The translations under genes and the position numbers were made by a program. The notes beneath the pieces are model-generated. The model was not told where the DNA came from and made no database searches. It saw only the letters and a program-made list of their open reading frames with translations. Source: a virus. From it: a stretch of 64,000 nt of DNA. This document shows positions 54,591 through 64,000 of the stretch, one piece after another. Within the stretch, counting starts at the first letter, position 1, and every line of letters starts with the position of its first letter. The stretch spans positions 1-64,000 of IMG/VR virus record IMGVR_UViG_3300030107_001040; one strand, 5' to 3'.

Positions 54591-55709
54591 ATGACGCTTC
54601 AGTTGGAAGTTGGGGTATGGTATGTGTTACCAGGAATCCCAAATGTAGAAATAGGTTTACTACCTACGAAAGAATTTTTAGATCTCCCTGAGTGGATAAC
54701 TCAGCGTAATACGGAGAACAGACTTAAGAAGAAAGGTGTGATAGATCACCTAAGAAAAGTATTCCCCACTCATCATATTGTAGCAGTTGGAGAGATAACA
54801 GCACAAGATGAATGGGAAGATGGAACGATATATGAGGAAGGATCAAGTTGGAGACTTGATGCCAATACAAGAGCGAAGGTGTGGGATAGAGGTTTATCTG
54901 ATACTACACCAGAAGTAGTACTAGCGATTAAGTATAAAGGTAAAACACTAAAGGATCTTAGGAGTATTTACTGGGCGTTTGATAACCCAACAGCAGCAGA
55001 GATAGCAGCAGAAGTGGTTACTGGATGTCTTAAGTCTCTTGGCATAGAGTTACAGACTAAGAAGTTTCAAGATGGTCAGTTTGTAACAGCACTATCATAT
55101 ACTTGCAAGTATAATGCACCTGAAGTATATGGTGAGAAGGGTTTATGGTCAGAACCATCTGACGACTCAGTTACTATAAGTGACTACAAGAGAACTCAGA
55201 CTCTTCATGCTGTTAGAGATTACTCTGAGACTATCGTGGCAGTTGATGAACTGTTATCTAAGACTGGTATCATATCAGACTTTGACCAGACCTTCATCAC
55301 AGCATTATTTTTGTTTCATAGACAGTACGGTGTCTTTGATGACCACGTGACTGACTTATGCTTAAACCTTACAGGCAGATTAAAGGATGAGGATGGCGAG
55401 CAGTTATTGATAGCAACTGCCCCTAACGCTGGTGCTAAGTTGAATGCAGCAGGGTGGATAAAGAGAGAGAACGACAAGACCTACGAGAAGTATGACAAGC
55501 AAGTGGTCATCAAAGATCGTGGTAAAATGGATGGATTTGCTCAGGGTGTTCCCTTCTTCTGCTACTGGTTGACCATAGCATCACAGAATGGATTCAAGCA
55601 CAGACAAAATCAAGGAGCAAAGGGAGGATATACTAACTGGTTTAATGAGGTCTTTCTAAAGACCAATAGGAAAGCACTGGTAGAAAAACTAGAAAAACTG
55701 GTCAGTTGA
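54591..55709 (+). CDS. Hypothetical protein, possibly ParB/DndB-like N-domain
   Basis: QR motif and LDANTR resembling DGxHR. Confidence 0.55.
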   Translation: MTLQLEVGVWYVLPGIPNVEIGLLPTKEFLDLPEWITQRNTENRLKKKGVIDHLRKVFPTHHIVAVGEITAQDEWEDGTIYEEGSSWRLDANTRAKVWDRGLSDTTPEVVLAIKYKGKTLKDLRSIYWAFDNPTAAEIAAEVVTGCLKSLGIELQTKKFQDGQFVTALSYTCKYNAPEVYGEKGLWSEPSDDSVTISDYKRTQTLHAVRDYSETIVAVDELLSKTGIISDFDQTFITALFLFHRQYGVFDDHVTDLCLNLTGRLKDEDGEQLLIATAPNAGAKLNAAGWIKRENDKTYEKYDKQVVIKDRGKMDGFAQGVPFFCYWLTIASQNGFKHRQNQGAKGGYTNWFNEVFLKTNRKALVEKLEKLVS

Positions 55710-55763
55710 GATAGTGGCACATACTTCCACACAGAATGCTCTGAGTGGTATACCATATAAATA
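55700..55763 (+). promoter_or_regulatory. Early-type promoter motif plus late box
   Basis: GGTCA-N10-TGGCAC, 30 nt, TACCAT; TATAAATA at 55756-55763. Confidence 0.55.
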
Positions 55764-55764
55764 T

Positions 55765-55915
55765 GGGAAACAAAGGAGGTTTCTTTCTAGTCTGACAAGT
55801 AGGGTTCAATCATTTTGAATACGGAATACCAGCAATGGTACACTTCTTATATGATTACTACAAGAAGCAGACACATGACGAAAGAGTAATGCACCGCCCC
55901 CTCTTTTTGTTTCTC
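55765..55915 (+). ncRNA. Candidate multi-branched ncRNA A
   Basis: About 15-bp terminal stem, inner GTCTG/CAGAC helix closing three hairpins; no ORF in the track. Confidence 0.55.
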
Positions 55916-55931
55916 TCACCTTATCACATAC

Positions 55932-55982
55932 GAGGAGATGGATGTGCCTCTCGGTTCGCAACCGAAGAAAGAACTAACATCC
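55932..55982 (+). promoter_or_regulatory. Candidate pseudoknotted leader element
   Basis: GAGG/CCTC stem, loop GGATGT pairing with ACATCC, inserted TCGGTT/AACCGA hairpin. Confidence 0.45.
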
Positions 55983-56009
55983 GCTAGCAATTTAAGGAGG
56001 TTACACGAG

Positions 56010-56195
56010 TTGAAATTCTTCTCAACCAAAACCCAAATTTATGGGATCAAGAAGGCACTTAAAGCAGCAGAGAAAGATCCCTTCCTGTATAAGGATGAGG
56101 AGTTAATCAAATTGAAAACTTCTCTTCGCAAACTACGTGAAGAAGAAGAACTCACCAGACAAGCACAAAATGGAGGATTTGGTTACAATGTCTAA
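56010..56195 (+). CDS. Hypothetical protein
   Basis: TTG start after SD AAGGAGG. Confidence 0.65.
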   Translation: MKFFSTKTQIYGIKKALKAAEKDPFLYKDEELIKLKTSLRKLREEEELTRQAQNGGFGYNV

Positions 56196-56337
56196 ACCCA
56201 TCAAAGTGGACTACGATTCTCAATTTGACTTATGTCAAGAGCAAGAGGATGAGTGGGTCTCTGACATCCTAGGAGGTGTCAAATGCTATGTTGATGAGGA
56301 TGAAGTCAACTGCAAAACTTGGAAACCTGACTATTAA
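56188..56337 (+). CDS. Hypothetical protein
   Basis: ATG at 56188 after SD GGAGG. Confidence 0.6.
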   Translation: MSKPIKVDYDSQFDLCQEQEDEWVSDILGGVKCYVDEDEVNCKTWKPDY

Positions 56338-56339
56338 CC

Positions 56340-56765
56340 ATGAACTACAACACTTACGAAGTTCTATTAGGACGTGACAACGGTTACAACAAAACTGTTC
56401 ATGTCCATGACTGTATGTACGAGGATGAGGCAAGACTACTTGCTGAATCACAGTATGGTCTTTCTGCTTTAAGGGTGTTGTATCAAGGCAGAACTGACCA
56501 GCAAAGAACACAGGATGAGTTAGCACCACCATACTATCAACCTAGAGGTTCTCTCTGGTCAGGTTTAGCAGTTCCTTCAGTATTGCTAGGACTCGTGGGT
56601 GTTGTTTTAGTTGTGGAATTCTGGTGGGTGTTTCTACTAGGAGCAGGAGGAGTAGCAGGTTATAAAGCATATCGTGACCGTCCTAACTTAGGTAAAGATA
56701 CTACTGAGTATGAGGAGGAAGACGAGGAGGAAATGACACTAGATGAGTATTTGAACTCAATTTAG
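56340..56765 (+). CDS. Hypothetical membrane protein
   Basis: Two hydrophobic segments, acidic tail. Confidence 0.7.
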   Translation: MNYNTYEVLLGRDNGYNKTVHVHDCMYEDEARLLAESQYGLSALRVLYQGRTDQQRTQDELAPPYYQPRGSLWSGLAVPSVLLGLVGVVLVVEFWWVFLLGAGGVAGYKAYRDRPNLGKDTTEYEEEDEEEMTLDEYLNSI

Positions 56766-59418: not shown

Positions 59419-59748
59419 ATGACAGCAACGACCTTGACTACCCCTTCAACATCTAAAACAACTAGAAAAAGAAGGTCTAGGAAGGCAAAGACTACTCCAC
59501 TAAATAGAACACCTAAGACTGAGGTAATTACTGTGACCGAATCAACCGCACCTGCCAGAGTCCGTCCAGAGAAACCAAACCTAACTTGGGAAGACTACAG
59601 AGATGACGCTAAAGTCAGATATGAGATTCACCAGTATGAGGTTCAGGAATTATGGAACGACTGCAAGTGGGTTTATCAACAGTCACTACCATACGTCACT
59701 AAGGGTTTCAACTACGTGAGAGATAGATTCAATTCCTTCAAGAAGTAA
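59419..59748 (+). CDS. Hypothetical protein
   Basis: ATG at 59419; basic low-complexity N-terminus. Confidence 0.65.
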   Translation: MTATTLTTPSTSKTTRKRRSRKAKTTPLNRTPKTEVITVTESTAPARVRPEKPNLTWEDYRDDAKVRYEIHQYEVQELWNDCKWVYQQSLPYVTKGFNYVRDRFNSFKK

Positions 59749-59761
59749 TCCGCATTTCAAA

Positions 59762-59804
59762 GTGTCACATGTCCCCTCTAACGAGGGGATTTTTCATGTA
59801 CAAT
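59762..59804 (+). promoter_or_regulatory. Early-type promoter with embedded terminator hairpin
   Basis: GTGTCAC, TCCCCTC/GAGGGGA plus Ts, TACAAT at 30 nt. Confidence 0.7.
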
Positions 59805-61120: not shown

Positions 61121-61273
61121 TGTTGAGGGATACGTGGTTCTACTGCCCAAAACTCATTTGTGGGGTTATCCTACTAAGATATGAGGAGTAGGGGTTCAGG
61201 TGTAAGCGATTCCCAGTAGGTAAATTTGGTCTCTTGGGTGAAACCCATTGAAGTTAGACCCACTCTCTCAACA
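61121..61273 (+). ncRNA. Candidate multi-branched ncRNA B
   Basis: 10-bp terminal stem plus six internal helices and a loop-loop complement; no + strand ORF in the track. Confidence 0.6.
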
Positions 61274-62368: not shown

Positions 62369-62429
62369 GGGACAGTACGACAAAGTGTCCACTAAATGCC
62401 CCATTAGGGGCATTTTTTGTGTATATTAT
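62369..62429 (+). promoter_or_regulatory. Early-type promoter with embedded terminator hairpin
   Basis: GGACA...GTGTCCAC, AATGCCCC/GGGGCATT plus Ts, -10-like TATATTAT. Confidence 0.7.
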
Positions 62430-62452
62430 AAGAGTAAACAAAAGAGGACTTT

Positions 62453-63540: not shown

Positions 63541-63714
63541 ATGACCGTCACCAGAGTCAAAACCGATCATCACGTGATTGACTTCAGATCTAAGAAACTA
63601 TACAAAGAGGTTCTGAAGGACTGCCGAGATCTAGGAATTTCACTTGACTACTACTTCTTTGAGTTTGAACTGGAGGCAGATGACCTACCAGAAGACGAGA
63701 TAGATGACGATTGA
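63541..63714 (+). CDS. Hypothetical early protein (57 aa)
   Basis: MTVTRVKTDHHVIDF...GISLDYYFFEF; SD GAGG. Confidence 0.65.
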   Translation: MTVTRVKTDHHVIDFRSKKLYKEVLKDCRDLGISLDYYFFEFELEADDLPEDEIDDD

Positions 63715-63762
63715 AGTACTGTCACACTAAACCCCCATTAGGGGGTTTTTTATGTGTATAAT
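63705..63762 (+). promoter_or_regulatory. Early-type promoter with embedded terminator hairpin
   Basis: TGACG-N10-TGTCAC, AAACCCCC/GGGGGTTT plus Ts, TATAAT at 31 nt. Confidence 0.7.
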
Positions 63763-63786
63763 GAGTATAACAAACAAAGAGACCTT

Positions 63787-64000
63787 ATGAACAAAACTCA
63801 AACCATTATCAACAGAATACTACAGGTTGAGAATTTCCAAAATGTTGCCTGTGTATGTGCTAACTGGGAAGAGTTTGTTCAGGAGTTGAGCGAGTGGGGT
63901 GTTACAGGATGTGCCAAAATAGAATTTGATGATCCTGAACTAGACATCCCAACACTTGACAAATTTATGGTCACTGAAAATGGATATATCAGGGAGGTTG
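63787..64000 (+). CDS. Hypothetical early protein (runs off window)
   Basis: Open frame MNKTQTIINRILQVENFQNVACVC... to the window end. Confidence 0.6.
   Translation, partial: MNKTQTIINRILQVENFQNVACVCANWEEFVQELSEWGVTGCAKIEFDDPELDIPTLDKFMVTENGYIREV

Follow-up and report, generated by a model that had tools for sequence, protein, structure and literature searches.

A covarying RNA family with constant paired ends and exchangeable interior modules at the predicted 5' ends of early cyanomyovirus transcripts

Stem-loops at the very 5' end of a transcript, with very few unpaired 5' bases, stabilize bacterial mRNAs, as in the leader of E. coli ompA. Known stabilizers of mRNA 5' ends, among them the ompA 5' UTR and the SP82 and STAB-SD type in Bacillus, are simple hairpins or SD-like tracts, and they are not known to contain exchangeable modules or internal loops of conserved sequence. 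RNase III sites are present in phage early leaders, for example at T7 R0.3 and in the lambda N leader. For T4-like cyanophages, the RNA motifs manA (RF01745), wcaG (RF01761) and glnA, or glutamine (RF01739), have been described (Weinberg et al. 2010, PMC2864571); manA and wcaG are without proven function (PMC2864571). The promoter-early stem-loops (PeSL) are cassettes of the T4-type phages RB49 and phi1 (Arbiol et al. 2010, PMC2839356). A survey published in 2023 reports more than 10,000 candidate viral RNAs (PMC10690425). In the literature searched we found no description of the RNA analyzed here, which may be among the candidates of that survey.

The RNA is encoded in a stretch of 64,000 nucleotides (the window), which is part of a virus record of 101,655 bases. 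The closest named relatives of the record are the Prochlorococcus myoviruses P-SSM2 and P-SSM5 (Kyanoviridae), together with uncultured marine cyanomyoviruses, and sequence comparison with phage records identifies the virus as a P-SSM2-like cyanomyovirus. The element occupies positions 55765-55920 of the plus strand, in a gene-free stretch between an upstream ORF of 372 codons and a small downstream ORF; a DNA methyltransferase gene is located farther upstream, and the same arrangement is present in P-SSM2. A first-pass annotation, which had described the sequence of 55765-55915 correctly, had proposed an unannotated structured phage RNA, and this proposal is borne out by the strong covariation in relatives and by the lack of any matching Rfam family. 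The parts of the locus are as follows:

ending at 55709: upstream ORF of 372 codons
55714..55762, plus strand: predicted early promoter, with GTGGCAC at 55714-55720 and the -10-like TACCAT at 55751-55756; predicted start at about A55763
55765-55775, plus strand: 5' arm of helix P1, pairing with the 3' arm 55900-55915; 100% paired in 52 sequences
55776-55779, plus strand: 5' arm of P1b, GAGG, part of the closing helix; 2 pairs with compensating changes
55781-55787, plus strand: 5' strand of P2, TTCTTTC, pairing with GAAAGAG at 55880-55886; 7 pairs, 5 of them compensating, 97.8% paired
55790-55794, plus strand: 5' strand of P3, GTCTG, pairing with CAGAC at 55868-55872; compensating changes in 5 of 5 pairs, 100% of cells paired
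55799..55861, plus strand: nested T module of 63 nt, an insert in the P3 loop
55799-55802 with 55858-55861, plus strand: closer of the T module, GUAG/CUAC
55808-55813 with 55851-55856, plus strand: helix Ta, AAUCAU/AUGAUU
55817-55819 with 55844-55846, plus strand: helix Tb, GAA/UUC
55827-55840, plus strand: hairpin Tc, UACCA-GCAA-UGGUA
55868-55872, 55873-55879 and 55880-55886, plus strand: 3' strand of P3, junction ACAUGAC and 3' strand of P2
55887..55899, plus strand: A/C-rich, unpaired 3' linker (UAAUGCACCGCCC), in which UAA is conserved and the rest variable (consensus of 52 sequences)
55900-55915, plus strand: 3' arm of the closing helix, used as scan pattern, followed by the conserved unpaired tail UCACC at 55916-55920
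55929..55982, plus strand: second, separate module of the same leader, 54 nt, GGAUGU...ACAUCC with an inner hairpin
55994..56195, plus strand: small downstream ORF of 61 codons, with AAGGAGG at 55994-56000 and a predicted TTG start at 56010

Relatives of the element were collected in two ways. IMG/VR was scanned with the 15-base 3' arm TTTGTTTCTCTCACC, which gave at least 123 matches in at least 119 stretches. In 70 of the 123 matches listed, GGGAAAC(A/G)AA is found 25-175 nt upstream, and these represent at least 57 distinct variants, of 40-190 nt; among the matches listed, the variants share the paired ends, GGGAAACAAA with UUUGUUUCUC, and the UCACC tail. The possibility that the closing helix wraps genes in other viruses was rejected, as the 53 listed matches that have no 5' arm nearby either are truncated at contig ends or occur by chance in unrelated viruses. 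BLAST against phage records found short, closely similar segments of P-SSM2, P-SSM5 and marine single-cell virus contigs, located in non-coding DNA, and these loci have the same beginning and the same end around differing interiors. Since the first sample had been selected by the 3' arm, a second one was drawn through the PSSM2_070-like protein, the one most frequently encoded behind the element, and the element is present in 32 of the 37 loci found in this way that have enough upstream DNA. The ends in the second sample vary with compensation (GGGAAAAC/GUUUUCUC, GGAAAAC/GUUUUCC and GAGAAC/GUUCUC) and the tail is kept as CUCUCAC(C/U), CCUUCACC or CUCAACAC; the invariant ends of the first sample are in part a consequence of its choice by the 3' arm. 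The genome fragment of the window itself was searched for a PSSM2_070 homologue and none was found, and neither the PSSM2_070-like protein nor the neighbours of the element in the window match a Pfam family above the curated cut-off.

A covariance model (R1) was built from the alignment of the 14 insert-free members. It matches the window at 55765-55920 with 77.7 bits (E 8e-15), full-length over R1 positions 1-98 and with P1, P1b, P2 and P3 all present, and this is the sole match both in the window and in the 101-kb genome. The copy of P-SSM2 (AY939844.2, 55,824-55,966) scores 77.2 bits, and P-SSM2, P-SSM5 and AG-345-L05 have one true copy each; a second match in P-SSM2 and P-SSM5 (26.7 bits) is spurious, lying in P-SSM2 antisense inside purM. 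At gathering thresholds, a search of the window with Rfam 15 yields tRNAs and a distant glutamine riboswitch and nothing else, none of them over the element, and no family passes in the loci of 18 relatives. When matches over the element were followed up to E = 10, the best sub-threshold ones reached 11-21 bits, against thresholds of 43-77. None of the 4227 Rfam models matches the element, including manA, wcaG, glnA, PhotoRC, 6S, Y RNA and the ribozyme families. The glutamine riboswitch aptamer (RF01739) is located at 140-183 of the window, where it scores 38 bits (threshold 35) and has a tRNA gene on either side (6-79 and 2227-2298).

Searches of cellular genomes gave no sign of a host origin of the element. 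The T module has no match in 185,579 species genomes, and the end-to-end pattern has one match in cellular genomes, in a contig (L185, PAZU01000057.1) filed under a 'Methanobacteriota archaeon' MAG. This contig is probably a mis-binned phage fragment, since its only matches in the phage database are weak ones (65-71% identity) to cyanomyovirus genes. By these comparisons of sequence and covariance, the element is a member of a large cyanomyovirus RNA family that is absent from Rfam.

The fold of the element was derived from the relatives. For the insert-free members (n = 14), RNAalifold gives the closing helix, composed of P1 and P1b, and the inner helices P2 and P3. In the MAFFT alignment of these 14 members 96.4% of the cells pair, compared with 55-67% when the partners are slid, and 9 pairs show compensating changes; in the 56 matches of the model (52 distinct) the corresponding values are 98.1% and 50-66%. 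Compensating double changes are found among the 52 distinct sequences in 13 of the 24 pairs, including all 5 pairs of P3 and 5 of the 7 pairs of P2, and none of 500 shuffles reached the covariation score. The alignment of 52 sequences was fitted to the model and is for this reason biased in favour of the structure; it agrees with the MAFFT alignment of 14 members, which is independent of the model. G-U pairs make up about 12% of the paired cells, two conserved ones in P1 and one in P2 being notable cases. On the other strand they would be A-C mismatches, and the selected fold is therefore that of the plus-strand RNA.

Single-sequence thermodynamics is not significant (z = -1.16, with 30 of 200 shuffles folding as well), and z is -0.02 for a region of 321 nt. 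The minimum free energy of the element is -34.1 to -35.3 kcal/mol, the comparative fold having -32.7 kcal/mol against -35.3, and the reverse complement of the element folds equally well (-35.5 kcal/mol). Energy alone thus indicates neither structure nor strand, and the support comes from the relatives, whose pattern of substitutions shows that the fold is under selection as plus-strand RNA.

Several pairings proposed by the first-pass annotation are confirmed by this analysis. The end pairing of GGGAAACAAAG/GAGG (55765-55779) with CCTC/TTTTTGTTTCTC (55900-55915) is found in the relatives, GTCTG/CAGAC, corresponding to P3, has compensating changes in each of its 5 pairs, and the hairpin TACCA-GCAA-TGGTA (55827-55840) is supported by the T-module alignment. 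The interior had otherwise been drawn as a junction of three hairpins followed by a further hairpin, CATGAC-GAAAGA-GTAATG, and here the comparative fold differs. GAAAGAG (55880-55886) pairs with TTCTTTC (55781-55787), 7 bp with 5 compensating positions, and the hairpins TTCAA/TTGAA and CTTCTT/AAGAAG are replaced by AAUCAU/AUGAUU and GAA/UUC. The inner 63 nt are a separate module, and from the pairings of P2 and of the T-module stem the comparative fold of the whole RNA is an unbranched rod.

The P3 loop (AC ... AGAAG) is the insertion site: relatives without insert have a 9-nt loop, ACUYAGAAG, and in the window this loop contains the T module. The T module is present at 12 further IMG/VR loci, most copies being located inside a different end-paired RNA, GUUGAG.../...CUCAAC, and several copies hold further modules nested in the apical loop of Tc. 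For 11 copies of the T module, RNAalifold gives a single stem of 19 pairs, 6 of which have compensating changes. Tb is GGA/UCC in 10 of 10 other aligned copies, and GAA/UUC in the window is therefore a compensating double change.

The window has its own example of the GUUGAG.../...CUCAAC RNA, a second end-paired RNA at 61121-61273 (GUUGAGGGA.../...CUCUCAAC-ACC), which starts directly behind a ATTATATAAA box resembling a promoter; relatives (L001, L134-L142) have the T module in this RNA. In three loci (L134, L135, L141) an A-type element is located 0.5-0.9 kb upstream of the second end-paired scaffold.

Across the family, the constant parts are the closing helix and the tail. The smallest members are plain 5' hairpins of 40 nt, with about 14 bp, and the length of the interior ranges from 15 to 165 nt. 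The interior is composed of helix-closed modules that recur in varied order and depth, including the P2/P3 core, a CCCUGAGA...CAGACAU unit and a GGCR...GUAAGWCC unit; the P2/P3 core is itself nested inside other modules in two loci (L040 and L014). Comparison of the members shows that the ends are constant and that the interior consists of modules which related phages exchange, nest or omit.

The leader of the window also contains the separate module of 54 nt (55929-55982), which is 100% identical to P-SSM2 despite differing flanking genes, and whose inner hairpin is kept by compensating changes in P-SSM5 and L040. Some of these changes are non-synonymous in an overlapping ATG frame, so that the module is more likely an RNA element than a peptide. 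We also searched marine metatranscriptome runs, which consist of contigs and each hold at most 7% of the sampled words. Coverage is deepest over the 54-nt module (depth about 1000, run X1) and weak at both ends of the element; one contig of 85 nt spans 55879-55955; contigs of this kind show neither transcription nor transcript ends.

The family can be compared with the systems described above. Like manA, wcaG and glnA, it is a conserved covarying RNA in the predicted 5' UTRs of cyanomyovirus genes, represented mainly by marine sequence; unlike them, it is located at the predicted extreme 5' end of the transcript, combines constant paired ends with interchangeable nested modules, and heads unrelated genes. 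With 6S RNA (RF00013) it shares a rod-like shape, a length of about 150 nt and closure by its own two ends, but it has no Rfam match and no large central bubble, and its interior varies from 15 to 165 nt. Like the RNase III sites, it is a long irregular hairpin in an early leader, upstream of the first gene; its helix, however, is broken by many loops of conserved sequence, and its smallest members have only about 14 bp.

The likeness to PeSL is in the association with cassettes of early sigma-70-type promoters in plastic regions, before small orphan genes, and in the link of both to insertion, deletion and replacement of the flanked DNA. In PeSL the stem-loop is placed around the promoter or upstream of it and acts as a terminator, whereas the element is downstream of the predicted start, measures 40-190 nt, covaries as RNA, is modular, and is present once per genome instead of about 50 times: where PeSL have many near-identical copies, one copy was found in the own genome, in P-SSM2 and in P-SSM5. 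Moreover, the promoter region 55714-55762 has no PeSL-type stem-loop, that is, no hairpin plus U-run. At three neighbouring early promoters of the window (59747-59800, 62369-62452 and 63704-63790) a GTGNCAC-like motif, a G+C-rich hairpin with a U-run and a -10 box are followed by a short AAACAAA(A)GAG leader, and these resemble PeSL promoter-plus-terminator cassettes. Neighbouring promoters of relatives, too, have a terminator hairpin in front of the -10 box and behind the upstream motif.

A natural deletion is found among the relatives: one locus (L155) is identical to another (L154) on both sides but is without the element (L154:832-978), with CACAT microhomology at both junctions. This clean presence and absence, and the shuffling of modules between loci, would speak for a PeSL-type recombination cassette acting at the DNA level, or else a self-cleaving ribozyme, the comparative fold having no other role. 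We consider this extremely unlikely, because the strand-specific, G-U-rich pairing with its many compensating changes argues for selection on RNA. As to self-cleavage, which the first-pass annotation had also suggested, the element has no match in any Rfam family at E up to 10, and hence none in a ribozyme family; the conserved cores of the hammerhead, twister, pistol, hatchet and HDV-like classes are unmatched up to the same value, and the junction bases are just moderately conserved, all of which speaks against a ribozyme.

The position of the element relative to a promoter is also conserved. The layout of relatives is GTGNCAC, 30 nt, TATAAT, 8 nt and GGG, and the spacing in the window is identical, with GTGGCAC (55714-55720) at a distance of 44 nt as in relatives. 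Among the matches listed, GGG follows the TATAAT/TATATT box by 8 nt in 50 of 54 relatives and by 6 nt in 3 of 54, and a GTG(G/T)CAC motif precedes the -10 box. These 6-8 nt agree with the earlier placement of the RNA at the predicted start of an early transcript. In the window the hexamer at the homologous position is TACCAT, weaker than TATAAT, and a consensus scan of 55500-56400 found neither promoter nor terminator; because of this weak -10 box, the RNA could also stem from read-through out of the upstream gene. A leaderless mini-ORF from the ATG at 55763 (MGNKGGFFLV and a stop) was considered and rejected: past MGNK the peptide and the stop are unconserved owing to indels, and among the matches listed 4 of 57 variants have AGT or GAT instead of ATG before GGG. 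In 3 of these 4 variants the spacing is 6 nt and the predicted start is GGG itself.

A structured RNA directly 3' of an early promoter might act on RNA polymerase just past the promoter and cause processive antitermination, as put or boxA elements do, and neighbouring promoter cassettes in fact contain terminator-like hairpins. Such a role is highly improbable, since the sole boxA-like string of the element (CUCUUUUU, 55901-55908) is base-paired and variable among relatives, one transcript per genome carries the element, and the interior spans 15-165 nt. A search for a single-stranded conserved boxA-like string, as in Nus antitermination, found none in the element.

The first-pass annotation had seen in the 5' arm a sequestered SD, and in the 3' strand a trans anti-SD regulator directed at the leader of gene 62453. 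The AAGGAGG string is present in the element, but the likeness to an SD is unconserved, about half of the relatives having ACGG, UCGG or CAGG there. Likewise, the leader of gene 62453 (62436-62447) is indeed complementary to the 3' arm, with one extra U in the arm as the only exception, and this is so because the 5' arm resembles that ordinary early leader. A regulator in trans would pair its 3' arm CCUCUUUUUGUUUCUC with the AAACAAAAGAGG leaders of other early mRNAs and block their translation, and the ordinary early leaders of the window do resemble the 5' arm. We rate this mechanism as very unlikely. Only the leader of gene 62453 and the own arm match well in 64 kb, where 17 matches at up to 2 mismatches compare with 10 expected, so that the regulon of early leaders considered here comes down to one leader in the window. 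Trans-acting sRNAs have an accessible conserved seed; here the antisense arm is locked in an intramolecular closing helix of 15 bp, with the seed paired in P1/P1b, and the part complementary to an SD (P1b) varies freely among relatives (CCGU, CCUG, CCUCA).

The gene most likely headed by the leader is the 61-codon ORF starting at TTG 56010, for which a Pfam search gave no match. Its AAGGAGG (55994-56000) is outside every conserved helix, and the ribosome-binding site is about 80 nt beyond the closing helix and unpaired with the element. In the family, most loci have 15-27 nt between CACC and the start codon, with further modules intervening in others, and the downstream genes belong to at least 10 families, unrelated to one another.

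A riboswitch-like sensor, in which a metabolite bound by one or more of the modules controls the gene behind them, could be suggested by the internal loops with highly conserved unpaired bases and by the glutamine riboswitch in the same phage. This is a poor candidate, with a very low probability in our judgement, given that there is no expression platform (no terminator, and a ribosome-binding site so distant and unpaired), that the genes behind the element are unrelated, that modules are nested in arbitrary combinations and that no Rfam aptamer matches.

In loci with the PSSM2_070-like gene (L144-L179), the spacer 10-30 nt ahead of the start codon contains few G residues, and its end is often UUUUCUCAC, UUUUCUUAC or UUUUUCCC. 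Part of the 3' arm and tail recurs in the first two of these, and UUUUUCCC could pair weakly with GGGAAA of the 5' arm; this spacer may provide an alternative pairing or be a mere pyrimidine-rich landing site for ribosomes.

With no terminator between the element and the next gene in the window, the element is likelier the 5' part of an mRNA than a discrete sRNA. One relative, on the minus strand of L017 (385-590), has the A-type RNA as a unit of its own, without an ORF: a promoter, an element of 112 nt, a spacer of 15 nt and a terminator hairpin, GAGGGUU-CAC-AACCCUC followed by U6. This terminator is located inside the next promoter cassette and is followed by a new TATAAT promoter for the next gene. 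Such a unit argues for a function of the RNA itself and not of a leader. The natural deletion leads in a similar direction, since L155 keeps promoter and gene without the element, which is then not needed to express the downstream gene.

The element may therefore be considered as a stand-alone or processed RNA acting in trans, a putative stable decoy or ligand for host or phage proteins in which each module would be one site, released by a nearby terminator or, putatively, by RNase III or RNase E cleavage of the closing helix. To the stand-alone unit of L017 and the dispensability seen in L155 are added the single copy per genome and the modules themselves, which keep sequence and fold across scaffolds and positions, arguing for a function independent of the gene behind. 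We regard this as possible but not likely, because the window and most relatives are without a terminator, with a start codon 15-27 nt on or past further modules, and because L017 is one case, whose terminator may be read through.

We prefer, with moderate confidence, to see the element as a 5'-terminal structured domain of an early transcript, which would shield the transcript and display RNA modules. Host RNA polymerase would start 0-2 nt before GGG, and the 5' arm, similar to the ordinary early leader AAACAAAAGAGG, pairs about 135 nt later with an anti-leader arm. The resulting rod is composed of nested helices, P1, P1b, P2 and P3, and then of the autonomous module inserted in the P3 loop; it is followed, without a terminator, by the UCACC tail, the second module and the ribosome-binding site of the small ORF. 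By burying the 5' end, the closing helix might guard the transcript from host RNases that depend on the 5' end (RNase E or J), and the nested modules, with their conserved unpaired bases, would be putative binding sites for host or phage factors on a protected scaffold. Possibly, a double-strand-specific RNase cuts off the rod, which could persist as a separate RNA.

The shielding role is modelled on the stabilizers, which the element resembles in having a stable helix within 0-2 nt of the 5' end predicted from promoter spacing and, in some members, an SD-like purine tract with no start codon. A plain stabilizer would leave unexplained the conserved unpaired bases, the repertoire of modules and the one carrying transcript per genome.

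What is new here is the family with GGGAAACAAA/UUUGUUUCUC ends, its P2/P3 core and the T module shared with a second scaffold, together with the natural deletion (L154/L155) and the stand-alone variant (L017). T4-like cyanophages are among the most abundant viruses of the ocean, and little is known of the first minutes of their takeover of Prochlorococcus and Synechococcus. The RNA family is widespread and strongly covarying, is absent from Rfam, and is carried on the first RNA that the phage is predicted to make, with an unusual architecture of constant paired ends and exchangeable nested modules within. It can be tested with the cultured P-SSM2 copy, with the pair L154/L155, one having and one lacking the element, and with the stand-alone L017. 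We also put forward, as an unlikely extension, that cyanomyoviruses share a library of small, autonomously folding RNA modules, nested in combinations at the 5' ends of their earliest transcripts, the end-paired RNA then being a combinatorial anti-host effector. If this were true, every module would act on a different host factor, as a decoy or ligand, the end-paired RNA could also exist as a gene of its own, as in L017, and a combinatorial RNA effector of this kind would be a phage weapon without a described counterpart. If the modules do bind host factors, they would give new access to the early takeover of the host and be a source of new motifs for RNA-protein recognition.
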